Source: Eledone cirrhosa (Eukaryota). From it: DNA of 64,000 nucleotides. The position numbers and the translations under genes are program-made. Shown piece after piece: positions 1-62,830 of the stretch. The notes beneath the pieces are model-generated. The model ran no database searches and was not told where the DNA came from. It was given only the letters and a program-made list of their open reading frames with translations. Location of the stretch: positions 35,092,001-35,156,000 of the forward strand of contig OZ024753.1 in assembly GCA_964016885.1 (NCBI GenBank), given 5' to 3'. The first letter of the stretch is position 1, and every line of letters begins with the position of its first letter.

Positions 1-81
1 CGGCGAGTAGAAATTAGCGAAACGCAACTTTCGATTTGTGTTGGCAAGCGCTCAATGGATACGAAGATACCAGAGCAATAA

Positions 82-130
<49 letters not shown>

Positions 131-9458: not shown

Positions 9459-9640
9459 AGGGTGGTGGATTGGCAGTATCGGTAGAGGGTTGGATGCCAT
9501 GCTTTGATGCATAGTTATGGCCCTTTCCATTCTGAGTTCAAATCCCGCCAAGGTTAACTTTGCCTTTCATCCTTATGGGGTCGATAAAACCAGTAATGCA
9601 CTGGATAATTGTTGGCCTTGTGCCAAAAGTAGAAACAATT
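9459..9640 (+). mobile_element. tRNA-derived SINE family B (central gcctttcatcc...ggggtcgataaa...gtaccag, Meta/MESC-like domain)
   Basis: A-box-like tggattggcag, B-box-like gagttcaaatccc, tail gtgccaaaagtagaaacaatt. More than 20 related copies in the window. The domain name is from recall. Confidence 0.8.
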
Positions 9641-9880
9641 AATTATATAATATCATGTTTATCATATATTAATTATATAATATTATATTTATCATATATT
9701 AATTATATTATATTATATTTATCATATTTTAATTATATAATATCATATTTATCATATATTAATTATATTATATTATATTTATCATATTTTAATTATATAA
9801 TATCATATTTATCATATATTAATTATATAATATCATATTTATCATATATTAATTATATAATATCATATCATATATAAATT
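9641..9880. repeat. 30-bp AT-rich minisatellite, about 8 copies
   Basis: aattatataatatcatatttatcatatatt tandem. 1.5 further units lie upstream of the SINE at 9415-9458. Confidence 0.9.
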
Positions 9881-12800
9881 ATATAAGCTATCATATTATT
9901 GCATTTAAATAAATTGACATAAGAAGCTAACTTTACCATTCCATGACCTGGACTAGATCTGAACAAAAAGGGGACATTAGATAGAACTGTTTATAGATCT
10001 GAGGGTGCAAGATTAGTCAGTAATTTTATGTACTTATTTACTTTCATGTTAATCCAAAGACGGTAGTGATAATGGTGATGACAATGATGATGTCGATGAT
10101 GATGATGAAAGTAATTGTGGGAAGTTAAACAGTTGATAAAATAGAAATAATATAAATTACGATAATATTTTAATTGAAATAGCGTATCAATCAATAGATT
10201 TGTTAAATAGATTGAAACAATATATTATATTTCTTCAAATCCTATTTGATTAGAATGCCATAGATGACTGAATCAATAGGATATCAAAGAGGGTTTAATG
10301 ATTTGTATCATCTAATTTGAATTAGCTTTACTGTAAGATTTTCTACTACCTGCATTACTAGTTCTGTTGTAATGTCCTCTGTATTGTATATCATGTTTGT
10401 AGCTGATGATAATGCAGCTATGATAGACATTGTAGATTAATCCTTTGTGTACAATCAATCTTATTAGTATGAGTCTATGCAGGAGCCTCTACATGCTTGC
10501 TTGACTTGCTAGAAATAGTAACCAAGTCTCCCTCAATTCACACGTTACAATTCTTAAAATATGTCATTTTTGATAATGTAGACTGGGATGTACTGAATAA
10601 GGAATGGGAGGGTTGTGGCTGGAATGCTTTTGAGCAGGGATGCAAGGATTCATTTGATCAGAGATCCCCTATGGATAAACAATCTTATAATCTATGTAGT
10701 TACATTTTTGGCATAAATCCATGATTTCAGTATCTTAATAACTATCCATGAAATTCTTACAGCCTTTTCCCCTTTTCATCATTATCATTTCTACATCTTC
10801 TTTTCCATGCTTGCATGGATTAGATAAGTCCTCTCCAGTACAGCATCTTTTCAATTATCTCTTTCCTTTGTCATCCTCTTTGTGAAGTTCTATGAGTACG
10901 TCTGTGATCATCTATCAATACATTGGCTTTTTTCTCTACTTGGAGCTCCTGGCACCTTTTCAGTTCAATATAACATTATTCATCTCTATATTTTTCTTTA
11001 CTCTTCTTATTGGAAAAACTTCAAAGAACAGATCATTTTAAAACTCATCCTTACCTGAATCTCCAGAATAAAAAGTTATAACAAACATAAATAAATATTT
11101 TGGAAAATATAAAACCTCATTTTACTAAATTTGTTATATTTATTTTCAGTCAGTGTACCTTGGACTACACTCTTTAATGTGTCCCTTCTTTTTAAGGATG
11201 GTAGGATGTTATTTAAAGGAAATTTAGCTGTTATTTCCAGTGTAATTGGCTCATTTAGAATTTTGGTATTTGTATATGTTTGTGTAAGGCGGCAAATTGG
11301 CAGAGGTTTTAGAACATCAACTAGAAAGTTTTGTGGTATTCACTCCAGTTCTCTGCTCTCTGATTTTAAATCCTGCTGAAGTCAACTTTGCTTGTCATCC
11401 TTTTGTCTAGTAATGAGGTCAATTCTTTCTCTATATATCTTTCTCACTTCCTCTTTATCTCTCTCTTTCTCTGGAAGAAATCTGCTGTGTTCAGACCTGG
11501 CAAGATGGGCTCTACCAGGTTTTAATATGCCAAAGAAACACTGTATGTTAATAGGGTGCCCCTACAACTCAATCAGGAGTTATGGGTCTAAGAGAAGAGA
11601 GATATTTTTGTGTAGAATAGTAGAAATTTCTTTAGAATAGTAGAAATTTCTTTAGAATAGTAGAAATTTTTATTTTAGTAGTTGTCTTAGTTGGCAATTG
11701 AAATGATTTGGAACTAAAAAATATGGTTTTTAACTGAAAATGAATTTGAAAGAATTGTGCACACTACAAACAAAAATTTATTGACCATTATGGTGGTGAT
11801 TCAAATAGGGATAAAAATTATTTCAGATATTAGCATAATTTAAAAAAAATCTATTGTTTTCAAACTATTTCAAAGCAGATCAATCTTTTCACTTTTGCTT
11901 CATTATTGGAATTTTACATGTATTTTCTAAATACAATGGTAACAATTTTTTTTTTATTGGTAATCTGTATTGATTCAAATATTTCAGTTCTGTAATATCA
12001 CTTTTGGTCCAGATTTGTTTGAATCAATATGAAATATGGTGCCAGATTTTGAAATACTTCATCATTCCATCAAAGATGTTAAAAGCTGAGTATTGCTACC
12101 TCCTATGATGTTTTTTTTAAATTTTTAATTCATTTAATCAGGGGTAGGGGTAGTGTCTTTAATGAATAGGGTCTCCGAGATCGATGGGAAGGAGAAAGGG
12201 ATGAAGGTATCCTCAAATTGGAGATGTGGTCTGAATGTTTTCAACAGCGTACTCTATTAAAGGCAGTCTGGGGTCAGGTGGGGTGAACTAGGAAATAGAT
12301 TAAGTTTATCACCTAAGTAGACCACAGTGAAATTTGAACTCGGAATGCAATGAGCTGAACCAAATAATGTATAAAGATAGTAAAGCCATATGAAAAAATA
12401 TAAATGTAGTTGTGACCAGTTCAAATAGCAGTTTTTAAAAACCTTATGAATGGCTATTCTGAGTTATTGATCACCTCATAGGCTCAATAAAGACAACATT
12501 CTTTAAATTTTTCATATAAAAGAAATCTCTAATAAAATTAATCAGATGTTAGTTTCTAAATTATATTCAAGCTAAATGTACTGGGGGAATTTTCAAAATA
12601 TAAAATCCATGTATAACATGGATTTTATTAACTATAGATAAAGTGGGATGGTAGATATCATGAATTTTATTAGTTATAGATAACAAATATCATGGCTTTT
12701 ATTAGCTATGGATAAGATGGAATGATAGATATCATATCTAGCTCCTATATTCTATTGGTAGGAACAGTTGGTATGGTGGTGAATTGGCAGAGCTGTAAAA

Positions 12801-18399: not shown

Positions 18400-19252
18400 G
18401 TGAGTATTTTTCCGAGGCTTTGTAAAATTTATTATAGTAATAGAGGAAAAACACTGATCTTTTTTCTATGTTGATAGTTAAAAATGTTAATAAATTAATA
18501 ACAAAAGATATACATGCTCCCTTTGTCCTTTTCCTAACACAGTGTTCAGAAAATAAACCTTATTTAATGATTCAGTATTAATACATTCCTTGTTATTATC
18601 TCAGACAAATGATAATAGTAAATTTATAAAGAAGAATTCATTTAAAGTGTATCAGTAGGATTTAGAACTTATTATTTCTGAAGCAGTATGTAGAAATAAT
18701 TAATTTTCAGATAATCTCTAGCTTGGTTACAAAATACATTTTCTTTTCATTATATTTACAGCTATATTTTTTCTTCTACTTTCATTTAGAATTACTTCCT
18801 TATTAAAATAATCATTTTTTATATGACTTCTAATTTATAAAATGTTTTCATTTTAATTTCTGGTCAGTTCTTATAGATTTCTGTATTTCCTCATAATAAA
18901 CAGTTAGTAAATTATTTAATTTAAACGTTTCATGATTTGAAAATTTAATAATTCACTTTTTTGAGAATTTTCTTTTTAATATAAAAATACCTTACCAGGT
19001 ATTTTTATATGAAACATTATCAATTTGACATTAAAGAATATATATATATATATATTTATTTATTTACACTCCCTGTATATAATATATGTGTGTGTATAAA
19101 TATATATATAATGTATATATGTAAATATGTAAATGTATATGTATGTATATATGTATATATATTATATATTTATATTTTGGAACATTATATGTATTCAATC
19201 AAATACACTCTCATTTTGTCTCAATCAGAGACAACATTGTTTTAAATGTATA

Positions 19253-20556: not shown

Positions 20557-20661
20557 TAATATTGAATATATAATATATATATATATATATGTTTAGCCCA
20601 GGTTCAATCGGGGGTAACCACAGTAAGTATGGTACTCAATACATAGCAGAGTACAAATATT

Positions 20662-20763
20662 TAATATAGAACTGTCTCTACAGGACTAGAACTGTTTCAT
20701 TTGGCTGATAATTTGCTAATAATTTCTCCCAAATGAAACAGTACTAGTCCTGTAGAAGCCAAT

Positions 20764-20772
<9 letters not shown>
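20662..20772. repeat. imperfect inverted repeat (about 43-bp arms) in a (TA)n island, hammerhead 3' half-like
   Basis: aatatagaactgtctctacaggactagaactgtttcatttgg / ccaaatGAAACagtactaGTCctgtagaagccaattctatatt. Confidence 0.8.
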
Positions 20773-20815
<43 letters not shown>

Positions 20816-20819
20816 TCAA

Positions 20820-21017
20820 TGATATTAAATAAATGGAAACTATATTTATAAAACCATATTTATTCTATTATATATATTTCAAGGGTACCAAAACTTTGGT
20901 ACGCTCTCATCAGATAAAATACAAAGATGAGAGCGTACCAAAGTTTTGGTACCCTTGAAATATATATAATAGAATAAATATGTTTTTATAAATATACTTT
21001 CCATTTATTTAATATCA
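20820..21017. repeat. 92-bp-arm inverted repeat (2 mismatches, 14-nt loop)
   Basis: Arms 20820-20911 and 20926-21017. The right arm continues as unique element sequence to about 21115. Confidence 0.95.
20862..20920 (-). ncRNA. minimal type I hammerhead ribozyme
   Basis: ATTTTAT CTGATGA GAGCGTACCAA AGTT TTGGTACCCTT GAAA TATATA TA^ ATAGAAT: both core boxes, 11-bp stem II with one C.C mismatch, 7-bp stem I, palindromic stem III loop, AUA cleavage triplet. Confidence 0.75.
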
Positions 21018-21359
21018 GTGAATATTATACCCCAGAAAAACTGTCGAGTGCTTTGAATCAGTTATAAACATTTATATTTGTTGAATTACCAACAAATTGA
21101 ATATCCCTTTTGCTTTTATATATATATATACTGTTCAATAAATCCAGATAGCGAATCTAGTGAATCTACTACTTATGTACATACACATACACCCACACAT
21201 CATATATATGCATGGGCTATTATCAGAAATTTTAAGACTCTTTTTCTTCTATATCAAGCATTAAACTACAATGTCATTATTGTATTGTATTAGTCTGTTA
21301 TTTTTCCTTGTTGATATTTCTTATACATATATATATACATATATAATATATATATATAT

Positions 21360-21681
21360 AACGAAGGAAATGTGGTAAGGAACCAGGTGGACCATAACGC
21401 ACCAAAGTACTCAATACTTAGGGTAGTAGAGTGGGTAATAGGAACAAGTAGGACCCCGACGGCTGAGCTCAAGCCGTTTCGACAGCTAATTCTGGACGAA
21501 TTAGCCGTCGAAACGGCTTGAGCTCAGCCGTCGGGGTCCTACTCGTTCCTATATATATATATATATATAGGAACAAGTAGGACCCCGACGGCTGAGCTCA
21601 AGCCGTTTCGACAGCTAATTCTGGACGAATTAGCCGTCGAAACGGCTTGAGCTCAGCCGTCGGGGTCCTACTCGTTCCTAT
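21360..21681. mobile_element. (TA)n-embedded fold-back element (family P) with duplicated 115-bp palindrome
   Basis: Unique arm 21360-21437, palindromes 21438-21552 and 21567-21681 (55-bp arms, loop tggac) joined by (TA)n. Confidence 0.9.
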
Positions 21682-22042
21682 ATATATATATATTTTTTTT
21701 TTATTTCATTACCAAAGGTTTCAAGAAACTAGATGATTCTTGTAAGGAACATCCAGTTCTTGAAACCTTCGGTAATGAAAGAATTATATTGTGTTGTTTG
21801 TTATGTAATGAAATAGCTCTGTAAAATAGATAGAGCACTCTTTTTTCCTTTACCTTTTCTATGGAAATACTTAACACACACACATATATATATATATACA
21901 CATATATGCGTGTGTGAATATATATATATGTATATATGTATATATATATATATATATGTGTGTGTGTATGTATTCATATCTATGTGTGTATCCATATATA
22001 TATATGTGTGTGTGTATGTATACATATCTATGTGTGTATCCA

Positions 22043-28239: not shown

Positions 28240-28370
28240 TATTTTCTGATGAAGGACTAGATTTAGAAACGTTAAGACTCTTTTCCTACTATATCAAGCA
28301 TAAAACTAATAATATATTTCTTCATTGTACTGTATCATTTGCTTTGTTATTTCTGTTTACCTTTTGCATA
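28240..28370 (+). mobile_element. Penelope-like terminal fragment with hammerhead core
   Basis: CTGATGA(28246-28252)-aggactagattta-GAAA(28266-28269)CGTT-aaga. Stem II weak. Downstream part homologous to 21225-21320. Confidence 0.55.
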
Positions 28371-28554: not shown

Positions 28555-28671
28555 AACAAAGGAAATGTGGTAAGGAACCACAAGTACTCAATACTTAGGG
28601 TAGTAGAGTGGGTAATAGGAACGAGTAGGACCCCGACGGCTGAGCTCAAGCCGTTTCGACGGCTAATTCTG

Positions 28672-28674
<3 letters not shown>
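28555..28674. mobile_element. family P element, unfolded copy
   Basis: Same sequence as 21360-21497 with a short internal deletion, ends at ctaattctggac, flanked by (TA)n on both sides. Confidence 0.9.
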
Positions 28675-28705
<31 letters not shown>

Positions 28706-37327: not shown

Positions 37328-37407
37328 AATGTTCAACGATTATGTTTAGTAACATATTTTTGGTGTTTACACCAAAAATATGTTACTAAACATAATCATT
37401 GAACATT
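37328..37407. repeat. 80-bp near-perfect palindrome (39-bp arms, 1 mismatch)
   Basis: aatgttcaacgattatgtttagtaacatatttttggtgt-tt-acaccaaaaatatgttactaaacataatcattgaacatt. Confidence 0.95.
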
Positions 37408-39687: not shown

Positions 39688-42600
39688 TTAATGACACAAA
39701 ACCTCTCATTTTAAAGAGTTTATTTTAAAATAAAATCTTCCATCATAATTTCATTTATAAACCTTTGTTAAGTTTATGTTCCAAACACCAACTTAATAAT
39801 GTCAAAATTAGTTATTTTACTTAATCTCTAAATTTTTGGTTATTTCAAAAATTATTTGAAACACATAGAAAGTGTCTTACATTAGAAATTTTGTAACAAA
39901 AAGGTTAAACTGAACTCTTTTTTTTGTTTTGTTTTTTGGAGTGTGATGTGTGTACTATGCTAACATCATTGATATTTAGACACAGCTCTTATTTTTAGGC
40001 TTTGTCTACTAAACACAGCTCTATTGATGCCTGATGAAATAATGGGTGGGTAAGCTCCAATCTAAAATCAGCATATTAGATACATTACCTACATTTCAAT
40101 CTTCATTAATGATATTAATCCTCTAGACCATTGTTTATCTAGCCTTGACTACTAATTTAAATCAGCTTGTAGTTAAAGCATACTAATTATGGATACTGAT
40201 GGAACAAACATTAATTCTGTTAGCATTATATTACCCTCCCCCCCACTCTCTCAACACTCTTACTATTATTACCATCATCAACCCACATTCATAATTTTTA
40301 TAGTTATTTTTAATGTTGGCTTATGCTACGTGCATTTGGAAAATTACTTTTTTTACATATTTCTATAAGCTGGGTCTATCTATTTACATTTTTGCCCAAA
40401 TACTCATTTATCTACTTTTGTCTATATTCTACAATCAGTTGAGAATTTTACAATTTACAACATTTCACCTAATTCTTATACCCTTATTCTCACAATATAT
40501 TCACCCCTTTTTTTGTTAATCCTTAATTGTAACTTATTCACAAATGATTTCAGCAACACTTCTTCTCTTCTTCTTCGACCACTTATTCATGAGAGGGTCG
40601 TGGAGACAATCTTCAAACACTCCTTCCTGAGAGTCCTGTCAAAAGTAAATGTCTCCAACTGGTGACCCCAAGCGTGACCAACCAAGCTCATGGATGTTAT
40701 CATTCTAACCACAGGTACAAATAAATTATTTTTCAGTGTTTCAACAACACTGATAAACAATTTATTTGTATCTGATATGTATCATTTGGAAAGCTTTAAA
40801 ATGTTAGCATTTAACTATACTATTTTAGCATTTAATATTTTCATGTTAGTGGATTGGCAGAATTGGTAGAGCATCAGATAAAGTGACATTGTGGTATTTG
40901 TTCTGGCTCTTTATATTCTGTGTTCAAATCCTTCCAAGGCCAACTTTGCCTTTTATCCTTCTAGGCTTGATAATATAAAGTACTGGGGTTGATTTAATCA
41001 ATTTTGCCCAGCCCCAAAATTTGCTGGCCATGTGGCTAAATTAGAAATCAATATTTTTATGTTTTTCAGATTTGCAAACTTTAGTGTATTTTCTGATCAA
41101 ACAAAGTGTGTTGTGAGGACTCTTCAGTTGTGTCCAAGACATGACAACCTCTTTAGTAACGGTGTCATGATAAAATTCACTCAGGAGAGTGTGGAACCAT
41201 ATATTAATGAAATGTGCTCCATCCCCACCTCCTGGCCTGTCTGGAAGGCTGGTAGCCCCGCTTCAATATTGATGATTCAGTCTGTGAAGACCCACCCAAC
41301 CCTTGCTAGCAGGGAAAATGAACATTAAACGATGATGATGATGATGATATCTTTCTAAGAATATATCATTAAAATTACATGCACCGACAGATATCCAAAC
41401 TCTATGCCTATCTTGATGTGCCTTTCATAATTTGCTGTTACCTTTACTATCTTCATTACTTGGTCTATTAGATTTCATCAGTTACATCCTTTTGTACCAG
41501 TTGAATTTTCTAATTAATTAGGTTAGTAATCAGATCATTTTCTCAATATCTCTAAGTTTATTTGTACCCTAATACTCACAACATTCATCTTCTTGGTTAT
41601 TTGCCATCAATTCCTGCACTTGTACAACCGGTTCCATCAGTCAAACCTACTTGAATTTCTTTATTTATTCCATCATTCTCTTTGTAATAGTTTCTTGTTG
41701 CATTCAATTGTACCATTAAAAAACAACAACTATGCATCAGTTTACTAGTATATCATTAGACAAACTATAGCATTACAAAAGTAAGTTTTCTCACATAAAT
41801 TGCCTTCAAATGGTATCTAATCATAGAAACTCATACAGTTTTTACTCATTATTAACAAAGCTTTTGATGATGCGTGGCATGCAACCTCTTGTTAAATTCT
41901 CTTCTTATGGTTCCTGATCAATATCATATCACCTTAATATGTAGTTTCCTTACATGCCATACTATCATCATCATTATTTAAGGTCTGTTTTCCATGCTTG
42001 CATGGGTCAGACAGGCTGTCATGTACTGAGGTTAGACTGCTCAGGTGACTATGTCTTGCTTGTACATTTCGTATTTAGCTTGGTTTCTACAACTGGAAGC
42101 CCTTCCTAATATCAACTACTTTACAGCATGTACTGTATATATTTATGCAGAACATAGAATATATTAGACTTAAGATAAATTTAATATAGATGTAACTACA
42201 GATTTGTAATTAGCAAAGTGAAAAGCAGAAAGTATCTTTACACTCTCTTCTTTTCACAGCAAAACTATAGTCATATCTATATTAGGTTTATCTTAAGAAA
42301 ACAAATTTAGAGATATAATTATATTAAAAATGGGGTGTATTTTTATCCATGTTTTGACAAGGAGAAAAAATAGCTAAACTCACCACTCAGTGAGGTACAT
42401 CATTTTTTCTTTGTACATATAATACTATCACAAATACAAGCAGCCAAAATGGGGTTCCTCCGAAGGATCTTTGAAATAACATTACTTGATAGAGTACATA
42501 GCTCAGAGATCAGAGAATCACCCCAGGTTGAGTCGCTACATCTCTGAATTGAGAGATCACCGCTCCAATACTATGGACATGTGGTCAGAATGTCTAAAGA

Positions 42601-44795: not shown

Positions 44796-47321
44796 TTAAA
44801 TTTGGAGTTGAAATTCTGTTGAGGTAAATTTTGCCTTTCATTCATCTAGGGTTGATAAAATACAGGACCAGTCAAGTACCACGGTCAACATAATTGACCA
44901 CATTTGAGTTCCTATGCCTATGTTAGAAATCAATATCTTAAATTATCACCATGTAATACTTATTTGTATGATTTGTTTTTCCATATTTCAGGCATTGGAT
45001 TGTGTATTTAATTATGTTTAAAGATATGTCTCTATAACATTCTGCTAATAAATTGCTATTCTGGGCTCCATTCATACAACTTTTACATTGAGTGTATGAA
45101 AAAGAAAAAAATTTTTTCTCCATTTAACAAATAATATTAGCTTTATTCAATTAGGCTCTAAGCCAAATTTGGCCAGGAAATTGAATTTTTATTTTGTTTA
45201 TTTATTTATTTATTTATTCATTTATTTACTGTTTAGTCAGGGAAGGATGAACAGTGGCTATGGCTCTTTTCAGGGCCACTGAGGCAGAGAGGAAGGAGAA
45301 GGTATCCTCAAACTTGAAACTTGATCCAAATAATTGCATCAGGGTGGACTCTACTAAAGACACCCAAGGACCAGACAGCTGTATTAAACTGGGTGTTGGA
45401 TTCAGTGTACTGCCCAAGTAGACTACAGCAAGATTTGAACTCAGAATGCAAAGGGCTGGAACAAATACTGCAAGGCATTTTATCTAGTGCTCTAACAAAT
45501 CTGCCAATCCATTACTTCAGACTTGGACTTTATTGTATCAACCCTGAAATGATAAAAGGCAATGTTCACCTTCATGGGATTTGAACTCAGATTGCAGAGA
45601 GTCACAATAAACAACAAGTGTTTTAAGGCTGTTTTTGCTTCTAAGGCAGGAGGTAGCTTTGCATGCCCCACTATAAGCTTCATATTTATCATGGGGTTCT
45701 TTTTGATGTAATGTTTTAAAGCTTTTCCTGACACCAACTCATTTACTCAACTCTTACAACAGACAGGGATGTGGTGTACCCATTCTAAACTAGATACATA
45801 CAGTCAGGACAAATGCCACAAGGCATTTTGTCTTACACTAAAACTCTGCAAATTTTTACTTTATTTTACTTTATATTATTGACCCCAGAAGGATGAAAGG
45901 GATGGTCAACCTCAGAAAGATTTGAACTCGGGAGACAAAGCACTGTAACTAAATGCTGCTATGATTTTTATCCGACACTCTAATGACTTTGCCAAACCAC
46001 CACCATTGTCTACATTTAATAATGAATTTATACATTTAATAATGAATTAGAATATTTTAAAACCCATATACATCATTTAATTATAATGATTTTCATTTTC
46101 GTGTTTTACTATTAATATGATTTATAATTTAGACTAATCCACTTTAAGTTATAATTAAAATTAATCCTTCTTTAAAACTTTATAAACCACATTTATTATA
46201 TGTTTTTGACCAATCAAATTTTCTGATATATTCCGGTTTCTTTGTTGGTAGCAGCTGGAATACTTTTCATCTGTAATGTTGGGCCCATCACCAGTGATGG
46301 GTGGGGGGATGGGGACACCCTGGAGGGTACTACCACACACTCCCACTTTTAAATGGGTGCATTCTCAGATTTAGAAAATAGAGTTTATAAAAAAAAAATC
46401 TATGAAATATGTTCCTTGAATTAGAATGTCCACCCAGAATACTGTATACTACCCCACCGCCTCCCAGCACCAAAGCCTTGTAATAAGCCTCTTCACTGTA
46501 ATAAACACAGCTTCTCATATCTTGCAGTTATAACAATGGTATAGCTATCACTGTGCAGTTATGAAATTTGCTTTGCAACCTCATGATCTAGGGTTCCATT
46601 CTACTGTATGGCAACTTGGACAGGTGTTTTCTACTATAGTCTTAGGCTGACCAATACTTCATGAGTGAAATTTGGTTGTTAACAACTATGCAGAAGTCTG
46701 TTGTGTGTGTATATGCATGTGTGTGTGTGTGTATATATATACATATATGTGTGATTGTGCATATGTGTATTTATCTCGACATGTGTTTTTGAATTGACAC
46801 TGGTGACATTTGTTTATGTTCTGTATAAATGATATGTTCCACTGCCCAGCAGTTTCACAGGTGATAATTGTTGAAATGCATATCTTAGTTATTTTCAATA
46901 TCATACTTGAGTTGGCATCAGGAAGGGCATCCAGTCATTGATTACTGTGTCAACAAAACCTCATCTAACTCATACCATTATGGAACAGTGAATGTAAAAG
47001 TGATGATGATTGTATTGATAGTAACAATTACAATAGAATTATTATTCTTTTACCTTTTTCAATCAATAGACTGCAGCTATGCTGGAGTTTCACCTTGATT
47101 TAGTCAATTATATCAACATCAGTAGCCCTTTTTTCAAGTCTGGTACTTATTTTATCAATCCCTTTTTTTTGTCGAACTACTAATACACAGGATATAAACA
47201 CAGACAGTCACAAATGTAAAGCCAAACACGAAAACAAGCATATACTTTTTTAACAACACTGCAAATTAGTTTGGCAAGTTTTCACCATAAATATCTTTCT
47301 TTATATACTTATTATCCTTTC

Positions 47322-47462
47322 TTATACTTTTGTTGAGCCCTAATTTTCTAAGGTGTTATTTAATTATTTCATTTCAGGTTTTGTAATAAGGTAAGTTGAA
47401 GAAAACTTGAAACAAAATAATTAATTTACACCTTAGAAAATTAGGGTTCAACAAAAGTATAA
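47322..47462. repeat. imperfect inverted repeat (about 61-bp arms, 19-nt loop)
   Basis: ttatacttttgttgagccctaattttctaaggtgt...tttcaggtttt / aaaacttgaaac...acaccttagaaaattagggttcaacaaaagtataa. Confidence 0.9.
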
Positions 47463-47609
47463 CAAATGAAAAGTATATACATATATATATATATTCGTCT
47501 AACCCATGCCAGTGTGGGAAAATGGATGTAAAACGATGATGATGATGGTATATGTGTAGAAAGCATTTGGTGAAATAATAATTGTGGTGAACTAGCTGAA
47601 TCGTTAGAG

Positions 47610-48700: not shown

Positions 48701-49258
48701 ACACTTTCATCATATATTTATGTATATATATATGTGTGTGTGTGTATATATATATATATTATATATATACAGAGAGAGAAAGAGATAAGGTAAGATAAGC
48801 TACAACTGCTCATCTAGAACAAATAGAACAGACCCATCTATAAGACTGTGTATGCATGTCTACACACATACACAGATATATGTATGTGTGTGTGTATATA
48901 TACATATATATATATGTTATATAAGTAGATACATGCATACATGAAACACCATATGCATACACATATATGTACTAAGTTACATTGCAGATTAAATCGTAAG
49001 TTTTTATGTCAGTTAGTCTATCGAAGGAAAAACCCAGTTTCAGATTTGTAGTAATTTTAGCATTAACATATATCTTTAGTTTCATTTCAGCTTTAAAACA
49101 TTAAGTTAGCAGCCTTTATGAATGACCCATTCTGAGACAATCCAAGTCAGATGACCGGATCTTACTCATTCAGAACTGATTTTGGCTTGGTTTCTATGGC
49201 TGGATGCCCTTCCTAATGCCAATCACATTTACCGTGTGTACTGGGTGCTGTTTGATGT

Positions 49259-49790
49259 GACACCTACATGACCACTTTACAGTGTGGACTGGGTGCTTTT
49301 TGTCATGACACCTACATGACTACTTTACAATATGAACTGGGTGCTTTTTGTCATGACACCTACATGACCACTTTACAATGTAGACTGGGTTATTTTTGTC
49401 ATGACACCTACATGACTACTTTACAGTGTGGACTGGGTTCTTTTTGTCATGACACCTACATGACTACTTTACAGTGTGGACTGGGTGCTTTTTGTCATGA
49501 CACCTACATGACTACTTTACAATGTAGACTGGGTTCTTTTTGTCATGACACCTACATGACTACTTTACATTGTAGACTGGGTTCTTTTTGTCATGACACC
49601 TACATGACCACTTTACAGTGTGGACTGGGTGCTTTTTGTCATGACACCTACATGACTACTTTACAATGTGAACTGGGTGCTTATTGTCATGACACCTACA
49701 TGACTACTTTACATTGTAGACTGGGTGCTTTTTGTTGTGACACCTACATGACCACATTACAGTGTGGACTGTGCGCTTATTGTCATGGCT
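49259..49790. repeat. 48-bp minisatellite (11 units) expanded inside a family A SINE
   Basis: gacacctacatgactactttacagtgtggactgggtgctttttgtcat. 1-3 units of the same motif occur in other family A copies (5400, 7490, 28820). Confidence 0.95.
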
Positions 49791-50890
49791 CCAGGATGAC
49801 TGCTTTATGGTGGGAATTGGTCAGAGAACCACTTTTTATTCATGCATTCCATATTTTGGTATGTTTTCTATGGATGGATGCCCTTCCTAATGTTATGTCC
49901 ACTACCAATATTTTTCTGTAGTTATTAGCAAAACAAACAAAAATATAACTAGATTATTATTAGGGTGGTTGATTGGCTGTATCAGTAGAGCGTCAGACAG
50001 CATGCTTTGGGGCATAGTGTTGCATCCCTATATGTTCTGATTTTAAATCCCATCAAGGTTAGCTTTACATTTCATCCTTATGGGGTCGATAAAATAAAGT
50101 ACTAGTAACACACTGCGGTTGATTTAAAATTGTTGGCCTTGTGCCTATATCAGAAACCATCATCATCAGCATCAGGAGTAGTAGTAGTAGTATAATACTC
50201 ATCTTTGCTCTCACTATGACCATAACATATATATTAAGACTCATAGTATCGTGTTTATTATTTCCATTCTCAATAGCAGCATTTGCTACATTTCTTGTAT
50301 GCAACCAGCATCATTTAAAAATAAAAAAAAAAACTCCACCTCTATCAGAATATCATTCTCACTATAGCTTCAGTATAATCCTACTTGCTCTTCAGCTTGC
50401 TGTGCATCCCTTACTGTTGCTAATATTTATTGTCGTATACCAGTATAGTTGTCATTGATGTCTTCTACAATCATAATCAAGGAAGAAAGCAAAACATTGA
50501 TAATATAACTGTGTAAATATATTCTGTTTACTCCCTACTTTATATCAAACCCATTTGTTAATAGAAGCCCATCACTTGTCAGCATGAAAGACTTTAAACA
50601 AAGCCCTATATGCACACACGTGCCAGAGTTGTTGTCACTGCTACCATTGCTGTTACAGCAACTAGGACTACTACTTCAGCGGCTACTATTGTTCTCTTTT
50701 TCAAACCAACCAGGAAGCAAAGAATTCATATAATTTTGCTTTCATGTTATTTTTCTTATATTCTTTTACATTAAAAATAAAATCAACAACAACTACAAAA
50801 AAATCCCTAACATTTTCATTCTTTTTCCTTAATTATAACTCATTTAAAAAAATTTTTTTGTTAACTACACTCAGCTTATTATGTTGTCAC

Positions 50891-52118: not shown

Positions 52119-52205
52119 AACGAAGGGAGTGTGGTAAGGAACCAGGTGGGTCATAATGCACCAGAGTACTCAATACTTAGGGTATGTGATGATAGGAAAA
52201 GAGTC
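52119..52205. mobile_element. family P element, diverged truncated copy
   Basis: aacgaagggagtgtggtaaggaaccaggtgggtcataatgcaccagagtactcaatacttaggg within (TA)n. Confidence 0.85.
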
Positions 52206-52498: not shown

Positions 52499-52766
52499 CC
52501 GGGAGCTTCCAACAGAAATGGTCGCATTCTTTAAGGGTATGTCAATATTTATTTATAAAACTGATCTATATTATATTTTATCTGATGAAAGCACACCATA
52601 ATTTAACTTGGTGTCCTTTAAATATGTATGAAATAAATATGGTTTTATAAATATAGTTTCCATTTGTTAATATATCGTTTTTTACTCCAATAATTTGTTG
52701 AGTGCTTTATATCAGTTATAAAAATATTTGCTTGTTGTAACCCAACAATTTAAATAGAACTTCTAC
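52499..52766 (+). mobile_element. relative of the 20820 element with mutated hammerhead (52575-52635)
   Basis: attttat CTGATGA AAGCACACCA taatttaact TGGTGTCCTT TAAA (GAAA to TAAA). Downstream sequence aligns with 20970-21100. Confidence 0.75.
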
Positions 52767-52822
<56 letters not shown>

Positions 52823-62640: not shown

Positions 62641-62642
<2 letters not shown>

Positions 62643-62825
62643 CGAAGGAAAAGTGGTAAGGAACCAGGTGGACCATAATGCACCAAAGTACTCAATACTT
62701 AGGGTAGTAGAGTGGGTCATAGGAACAAGTAAGACCCCGACGGCTGAGCTCAAGCCGTTTCGACGGCTAATTCCAGAATTAGCCGTCGAAACGGCTTGAG
62801 CTCAGCCGTCGGGGTCTTACTTGTT

Positions 62826-62830
<5 letters not shown>
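62641..62830. mobile_element. family P fold-back element with perfect 55-bp arms
   Basis: Arms 62719-62773 and 62776-62830, loop ca. Flanked by (TA)n. Confidence 0.92.

Follow-up and report, generated by a model that had tools for sequence, protein, structure and literature searches.

Penelope-like elements (PLEs) typically carry an inverted truncated copy and a one-sided tail (PMC8557442, PMC3846280). Members of the Hydra clade contain hammerhead ribozymes and insert into (TA)n (PMC8557442), and their proteins are marked by RWK and DKT motifs and a CxCX5C linker and lack CCHH. In work with a purified PLE protein, both target strands are nicked and extended, with synthesis starting at two internal sites that delimit the tail (PMC11167929). 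Non-LTR retrozymes are described as tandem units of 150–450 bp, each with a hammerhead, that are found as linear and circular RNA (PMC7229834, bioRxiv 10.64898/2026.07.22.740005). PLE ends with covarying hammerheads have been published, as have truncated inverted copies, tails and the targeting of TA (PMC4209133, PMC8557442, PMC3846280, PMC6765202), and how tandem and inverted PLE ends are formed and which role the hammerhead plays are stated open questions (PMC8557442).

Our analysis of a 64,000-nt window (the whole stretch of DNA that was analyzed) centers on a mirror-image repeat of ∼300 bases at 20816–21115, which is likely a dead fragment of a Penelope-like element; that it represents a terminal fragment of the PLE type is, in our estimate, very probable. 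Its two head-to-head arms match over 96 bp with three mismatches (Table 1), extending a 92-bp core (20820–20911 / 20926–21017). The preliminary description had seen an inverted copy beginning at 20926 without the CT of CTGATGA, and the first base of the right arm is indeed G5 of CUGAUGA; the 94-nt continuation of this arm to 21115 had been overlooked. An inverted, 5′-truncated terminal copy as in EN+ PLEs is present at the fold-back.

Four of 12 listed public runs, from other individuals and reduced-representation libraries, were aligned to 20812–21117, i.e., the RAD reads X10 and X11 and the contig records X1, with the same species label, and X4, from another organism. The stems II of the two arms are identical, and all three differences between the arms are private to the right arm, the left-arm letter being found in 298 of 376, 406 of 435 and 400 of 436 X10 reads. 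None of the three is A-to-G, and ADAR-type editing was rejected for the fold-back.

Table 1. Features of the fold-back locus, its minus-strand hammerhead motif and the paralog (positions in the window).
Feature	Position	Strand	Basis or remark
Left target flank, (TA)n run and short CA repeat	20767..20815		sequence
Left arm, inverted copy ending at the recurrent short 3′ terminus of the family	20816..20911	-	sequence and reads
Spacer of 14 nt, 5′ part of the element (stem I 5′ strand, C3-U4)	20912..20925	-	left copy only
Fold-back junction	20925/20926		
Right arm, forward copy 5′-truncated at G5	20926..21021	+	sequence and reads
One-sided tail of 94 nt, reaching the recurrent long 3′ terminus	21022..21115	+	sequence and reads
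Tail hairpin motif	21029..21052	+	starts 8 nt beyond the short terminus
Right target flank, (TA)n run	21117..21130		sequence
Complete minimal type I hammerhead motif, 8-bp stem I	20861..20921	-	descriptor match; predicted
Stem I 5′ strand	20921-20914	-	
CUGAUGA core box (C3-A9)	20907..20913	-	
Stem II, G.U at 10.1/11.1, C.C mismatch at pair 4, covarying distal pairs	20881..20906	-	
GAAA box	20880-20877	-	
GAAA, short helix III and AUA cleavage triplet	20869..20880	-	
U16.1/A17	20870/20869	-	
Predicted cut site	between 20869 and 20868	-	sequence
Stem I 3′ strand, 8 bp	20868-20861	-	
Paralog, single-orientation decayed copy between TA/TG repeats	52500..52768	+	nhmmer
Paralog hammerhead remnant	52574..52637	+	CUGAUGA 52582-52588, stem II 52589-52618
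Paralog tail hairpin motif	52684..52706	+	pattern match

Both outer ends of the fold-back coincide with recurrent termini of the family, the short one on the left and the long one on the right. The short terminus lies near 20817–20828 and is followed by TA repeats in 1,863 and 1,921 reads and 56 contigs, and the loose ends before these positions are TA-rich in X1, X4, X10 and X11. The long terminus at 21115 is followed by (TA)n in 62 X1 contigs and one X4 contig. Thus, the fold-back carries a one-sided tail between two recurrent termini, as EN+ PLEs do, and its hammerhead lies near the 3′ end, with the predicted cut site at a distance of 53 nt to the short terminus and of 147 nt to the long one. 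Two further pile-ups of read ends, at 21087 and 21098, were rejected as biological ends: both coincide with AATT sites and presumably reflect restriction cuts of the RAD libraries.

The tail contains a hairpin whose motif, defined post hoc, has six matches in the window compared to 0.02 expected in shuffled sequences. Its carriers are the fold-back, the paralog, three copies of a neighboring family and one more. One copy of the hairpin (60–100, minus strand, motif at 76) adjoins a TA run near the window start. By eye, the same hairpin is found downstream of the hammerhead in the published consensus sequences of Hydra-2_Amil and Hydra-2_Ajap (PMC8557442), a variant of it in Hydra-1_Crog, and it is not clearly present in the other three Hydra consensus sequences.

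The intact minus-strand hammerhead proposed earlier at 20862–20920 was confirmed as a complete minimal type I motif, read from 20921 to 20861, in which the left copy has the CUGANGA and GAAA boxes and U16.1-H17 in type I order. A relaxed hammerhead descriptor gave two matches on both strands of the window, this one and a second with a 6-bp AU/GU stem I. The Rfam hammerhead models did not match 20800–20925 at E-values up to 10, and no hammerhead was among the matches listed (150 of 243) in an Rfam scan of the window. Rfam miRNA matches were rejected as TA repeats and perfect hairpins below the gathering score.

Helix III of the motif consists of A15.1-U16.1 and one further pair around a palindromic AUAU loop, and the 8-nt segment from 15.1 to 16.1 is its own reverse complement, which predicts a dimer helix; a common family variant keeps this self-complementarity by a G.U pair (reads, by eye). 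The ribozyme in active parent elements would thus likely cleave as a dimer. The usual, though not universal, G10.1-C11.1 pair is absent, with G.U in the left copy and A-U in the paralog. In isolation the motif folds with z = −2.7. The duplex predicted for a read-through RNA reaches −146 kcal/mol compared to −7.6 kcal/mol for the hammerhead fold, so that the hammerhead of the fold-back is probably silent in place: such an RNA would likely bury the ribozyme in the 92-bp duplex and leave this copy inert.

Compared with the minimal type I hammerheads of PLEs (PMC4209133), the motif shares the type I order, a long helix II, a very short helix III and a palindromic loop, as well as a family setting of mostly solitary copies, opposite-strand pairs and many compensatory changes. 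In contrast, stem I has 8 bp here and 4–5 bp there, and G.U or A-U replaces G-C at 10.1-11.1. The conserved C.C mismatch in stem II finds no mention in the accessible text of that study and is a small unexplained feature of the family.

The sole other family copy that nhmmer detected within the window is the paralog, which differs by 19% substitution over the 3′ part. It has UAAA for GAAA and has lost G12, so that the boxes of a minimal type I hammerhead are incomplete, and 3 nt are absent at its cut site; the preliminary description had missed both defects. It had correctly listed two compensatory swaps in stem II and the same C.C mismatch. From fold-back to paralog, G.U became A-U, G-C became A-U and U-A became C-G, the latter two being double changes at adjacent pairs, and the C.C remained. 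Under independent substitution, five changes in 20 stem II columns would retain all nine pairs with P = 0.02, and at least two double changes would arise with P = 0.004. Since the paralog is catalytically dead, its stem II pairs reflect the parent element, and selection likely acted on parent elements and not on the two copies in the window.

The public runs provide stronger evidence for selection on the RNA structure, as claimed earlier, than these two copies. The family accounts for 27,200 of 12.5 M reads in X10 and 30,601 of 12.8 M in X11, depths that are skewed to subfamilies carrying a cut site of the RAD libraries, and for 6,687 of 16.3 M records in X1 and 52 of 8.3 M in X4. By eye, one abundant subfamily (5,410 and 7,432 reads) shows double changes at stem II pairs 2, 5 and 11, A.A at pair 8, three extra pairs and the same C.C. 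In a second one (10,743 and 11,071 reads), pair 8 is C-G, pair 7 is G.U and the C.C is again present, provided that its loose end belongs with the listed variants, as we infer. The C.C at pair 4 (20903/20884; 52592/52615 in the paralog) is thereby kept in four family variants, and the pairs on both sides of it change. Among the variants listed (40 of 75 rows), none at 5% or more falls in CUGAUGA, GAAA, U16.1 or A17. Common changes at 20865 in stem I and 20873 in the helix III loop preserve pairing, and one at 20866 leads to U.G where the partner base stays the same. Helices I and II are thus present, with helix II supported by covariation among variants compared by eye, and the hammerhead fold was likely under selection in active parent elements, of which this covariation would be the record.

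Compensatory pairs could also stem from template switching at the DNA level within a small hairpin, a process that makes multi-base compensatory changes (PMC8794818), and the two swaps between the copies in the window are adjacent, as such an event would predict. We nevertheless regard this origin as very unlikely: there is an intermediate state among the variants, from which each copy appears one double change away, the changes flank a C.C that persists in four variants, no variation is listed for the unpaired letters of the core, and the changes in stem I and helix III keep pairing via G.U (the last two by eye).

Scans of metagenome contigs and of viral contigs gave no matches to the family, and a literature search, with Repbase, Dfam and subscription journals outside its coverage, returned no description of it. 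The Penelope-like context suggested beforehand is borne out by the inverted 5′-truncated copy, the one-sided tail, the (TA)n flanks and the Hydra-like hairpin. The linked RT and GIY-YIG reading frame that was to accompany it is not in the window: Pfam searches of all 285 of 285 open frames of at least 45 aa outside tandem repeats revealed neither domain, only five weak matches in four frames, all below the cut-off. Such a lack is expected of a truncated copy, and a mobilizing enzyme has to be assumed, since the window holds no remnant of either domain.

With the Hydra clade (PMC8557442) the locus shares insertion into (TA)n, which is common to Hydra, Neptune and Naiad and hence not diagnostic, a hammerhead near the 3′ end, and a U just before GAAA that occurs in four of the six Hydra consensus sequences. 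Unlike Hydra elements, the fold-back has no open reading frame, and its tail measures 94 nt instead of the published 30–40 nt. Identity with Hydra-1_Obim was rejected, as the family is unlike the 3′ end of that element. The head-to-head arrangement, the tail at one end only and the two termini resemble the inverted pLTR of EN+ PLEs (PMC3846280, PMC11167929), from which the locus differs in that only the last 110–190 nt of the element are copied and no target-site duplication is readable in (TA)n.

The family also resembles metazoan non-LTR retrozymes (PMC7229834, bioRxiv 10.64898/2026.07.22.740005) in being small, AT-rich, non-coding and high in copy number with a type I hammerhead. It might thus be a non-autonomous, retrozyme-like mini-element that a PLE enzyme copied in trans from a small, perhaps circular, self-cleaved RNA, an origin compatible with twin-primed insertion. 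In line with this, the window contains no coding sequence for the family, which comprises many copies and several subfamilies with different stems II, and retrozymes have been proposed to be non-autonomous PLE derivatives (bioRxiv 10.64898/2026.07.22.740005). However, the family is known here from DNA, and the window holds two arms and one paralog, neither of the two copies being repeated, instead of tandem 150–450 bp hammerhead units. Moreover, the parent extends upstream by at least 30 letters in reads and by ∼75 nt in the paralog. We therefore see the retrozyme-like origin as a real possibility, if one of rather less than even chance.

How the fold-back arose is suggested by what its arms do not share. 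The tail is present only on the right and the 14 nt of the spacer only on the left, a layout that a single self-folding cDNA cannot give. These unequal arms, the natural termini at both outer ends and the behavior of the purified PLE protein (PMC11167929) point to two priming events, and we consider it probable that the fold-back is a twin-primed, 5′-truncated insertion into (TA)n by a Penelope-like, probably Hydra-type, RT-endonuclease. According to this model, both strands of the (TA)n target would have been nicked and cDNA synthesis primed from both cut strands, one cDNA starting at the short terminus, shortly ahead of the tail hairpin, and the other 94 nt further out. Both would have stopped near the ribozyme core, close to the first strong RNA structure, one 12 nt upstream of C3 and one at G5, and the two cDNA ends would then have been joined with ∼1 nt of microhomology, or with 3 nt for a parent similar to the paralog. 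Both arms are truncated, since in 54 X1 contigs the parent extends beyond 20926 on the upstream side, with sequence that resembles the upstream part of the paralog.

The published model for such junctions, and hence a point against twin priming, is self-priming on an antisense template, which was proposed for the head-to-head repeats and palindromes of bdelloid Penelope elements (PMC3846280). Here, one strand, antisense RNA or cDNA, would have folded back and copied itself, and arms with identical stems II that differ at only three of 96 sites do indicate a shared template. Self-priming would, however, have to account for sequence in each arm that the other one is without and for outer ends that both adjoin TA at recurrent termini. 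As there are only 1–3 nt of pairing at the junction, and as the process calls for an antisense template or for trimming afterwards, we judge it quite unlikely. A chimera of sequencing or assembly, or a later DNA repair event, is more improbable still, and only marginally to be considered: few reads cross the junction, and no listed contig of the public runs, which stem from other individuals, spans the whole locus, but there are three differences between the arms, no duplication of the flanks is seen, the outer ends match the two natural termini of the family, and hammerhead halves occur in both arms of four further fold-backs in the window.

At least four hammerhead-type repeat families, split by TA runs, lie within the 1.2 kb of 20586–21783, an insertion hotspot. 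Family B, flanked by TA (21361–21679, 62642–62827, 28555–28676 and 52120–52184), contains GAAA, a helix III of six pairs and a palindromic loop, together with GUC and the tail hairpin, and the first of these loci carries a second, identical fold-back unit. Judged from GAAA, helix III and GUC, family B would represent half a hammerhead; two fold-backs and one single copy of it break within ∼5 nt of each other, 12–17 nt before G12. Family D is a TA-flanked fold-back at 20586–20769, directly left of 20816–21115; each of its arms contains GAAA and helix III, and it has a variant of the tail hairpin at 20652 (minus strand) and a possible degenerate CUGAUGA at 20706. Family E, a diverged fold-back at 21701–21783, has in each arm GAAA and a helix III of three pairs; its center lies 18–19 nt before G12, and its helix III is shaped like that of Hydra-1_Obim.

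The preliminary description had further proposed that the inversion junction is mechanistically tied to the ribozyme region. A break fixed at GAUGA within the CUGAUGA box is not supported, since it does not recur in the family reads: the letter of the window at 20926 is found in two of eight X10 and one of five X11 reads, so that at most three reads cross the junction, compared to a mean depth at 20911–20921 of 1,952 in X10 and 2,270 in X11, together ∼4,200 beside it. Other possible fold-back joints, among 15 joints listed of 30 and 12 between-letter rows listed of 17, five rows of which come without strand sense, connect 20893 to 20944, 20906 to 21073, 20916 to 21022, 20924 to 21069, 20928 to 20908, 20980 to 20949 and 20875 to 21069. 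Each is represented by one contig of depth 5–12 or by three reads, and they are scattered over more than 100 nt; the reference used for this mapping extends no more than 12 nt beyond the core on the upstream side, and the reads are likely to under-represent hairpin DNA. Joints on the opposite strand from 20816–20831 to 21023–21046 were discarded as ordinary passage from arm to tail.

A looser tie is suggested by the window itself. Five of ten independent self-inverted matches have GAAA and helix III in both arms, with the inner arm end 12–31 nt from G12 of GAAA (P = 0.004 at a chance of 0.125 per point; four of nine by family, P = 0.02), under a criterion that was loosened post hoc after its first version missed families B and E and that may carry ascertainment bias. 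Together, this suggests that breaks are loosely tied to the core or to stem II, around which there may be a mild local excess.

Could the ribozyme itself fix the junction, because the template RNA begins or the RT stops at the core or stem II, and stem II anneals the cDNA ends? Both inner ends of the fold-back lie within 12 nt of C3, the five half-hammerhead fold-backs break 12–31 nt before GAAA, a joint at loop II (20893 to 20944) is present in one X1 contig, and five inner ends of three family B insertions cluster within ∼5 nt (by eye). On the other hand, 20925/20926 lies outside stem II and is crossed by at most three reads against a depth of ∼4,200, the other joints are spread from ∼30 nt upstream of C3 to positions over 100 nt downstream of it, a short fold-back retaining half a ribozyme necessarily breaks near that ribozyme, and the count depends on the loosened criterion. 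Self-cleavage cannot have made the breaks, since the predicted cut site lies 42–56 nt downstream of both, and hammerhead cleavage is dispensable for insertion in vitro (PMC11167929). We therefore hold a junction fixed by the ribozyme to be doubtful.

In its strongest form, in which the Hydra-type hammerhead would be a structural part of insertion, with two RTs, primed on opposite target strands, stopping at the core and the self-complementary stem II with its conserved C.C joining the cDNA ends, the idea is unlikely. If it were true, stem II covariation would have been selected as much for integration as for cleavage, and the origin of the inverted repeats of PLEs would be explained. A literature search with subscription journals outside its coverage yielded no paper that maps PLE inversion junctions against hammerheads. 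The fold-back at 20816–21115, which alone adds little, is a small and clean case in which one end is short, the other is long and the ribozyme lies at the center, and it defines templates for a direct assay.

Apart from these repeats, the window is AT-rich, animal-type DNA with 18% tandem repeat and no detected gene. Further inverted repeats, whose arms do not both contain a hammerhead half, are located at 37328–37407, 47312–47472, 40712–40774, 42169–42297 and 18975–19014. A decayed hammerhead-like sequence at 28246–28330, with CUGAUGA and GAAAC, has a second partial copy at 21225–21268; its stems fail the descriptor. The segment 62157–62228 matches the Rfam tRNA model with 42.3 bits, above the gathering score, and is perhaps a tRNA-derived repeat. 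Minisatellites of 25, 30 and 48 bp occupy 912–1884, 9608–9937 and 49132–49899, and several high-copy SINE-like repeat families are spread over the window.
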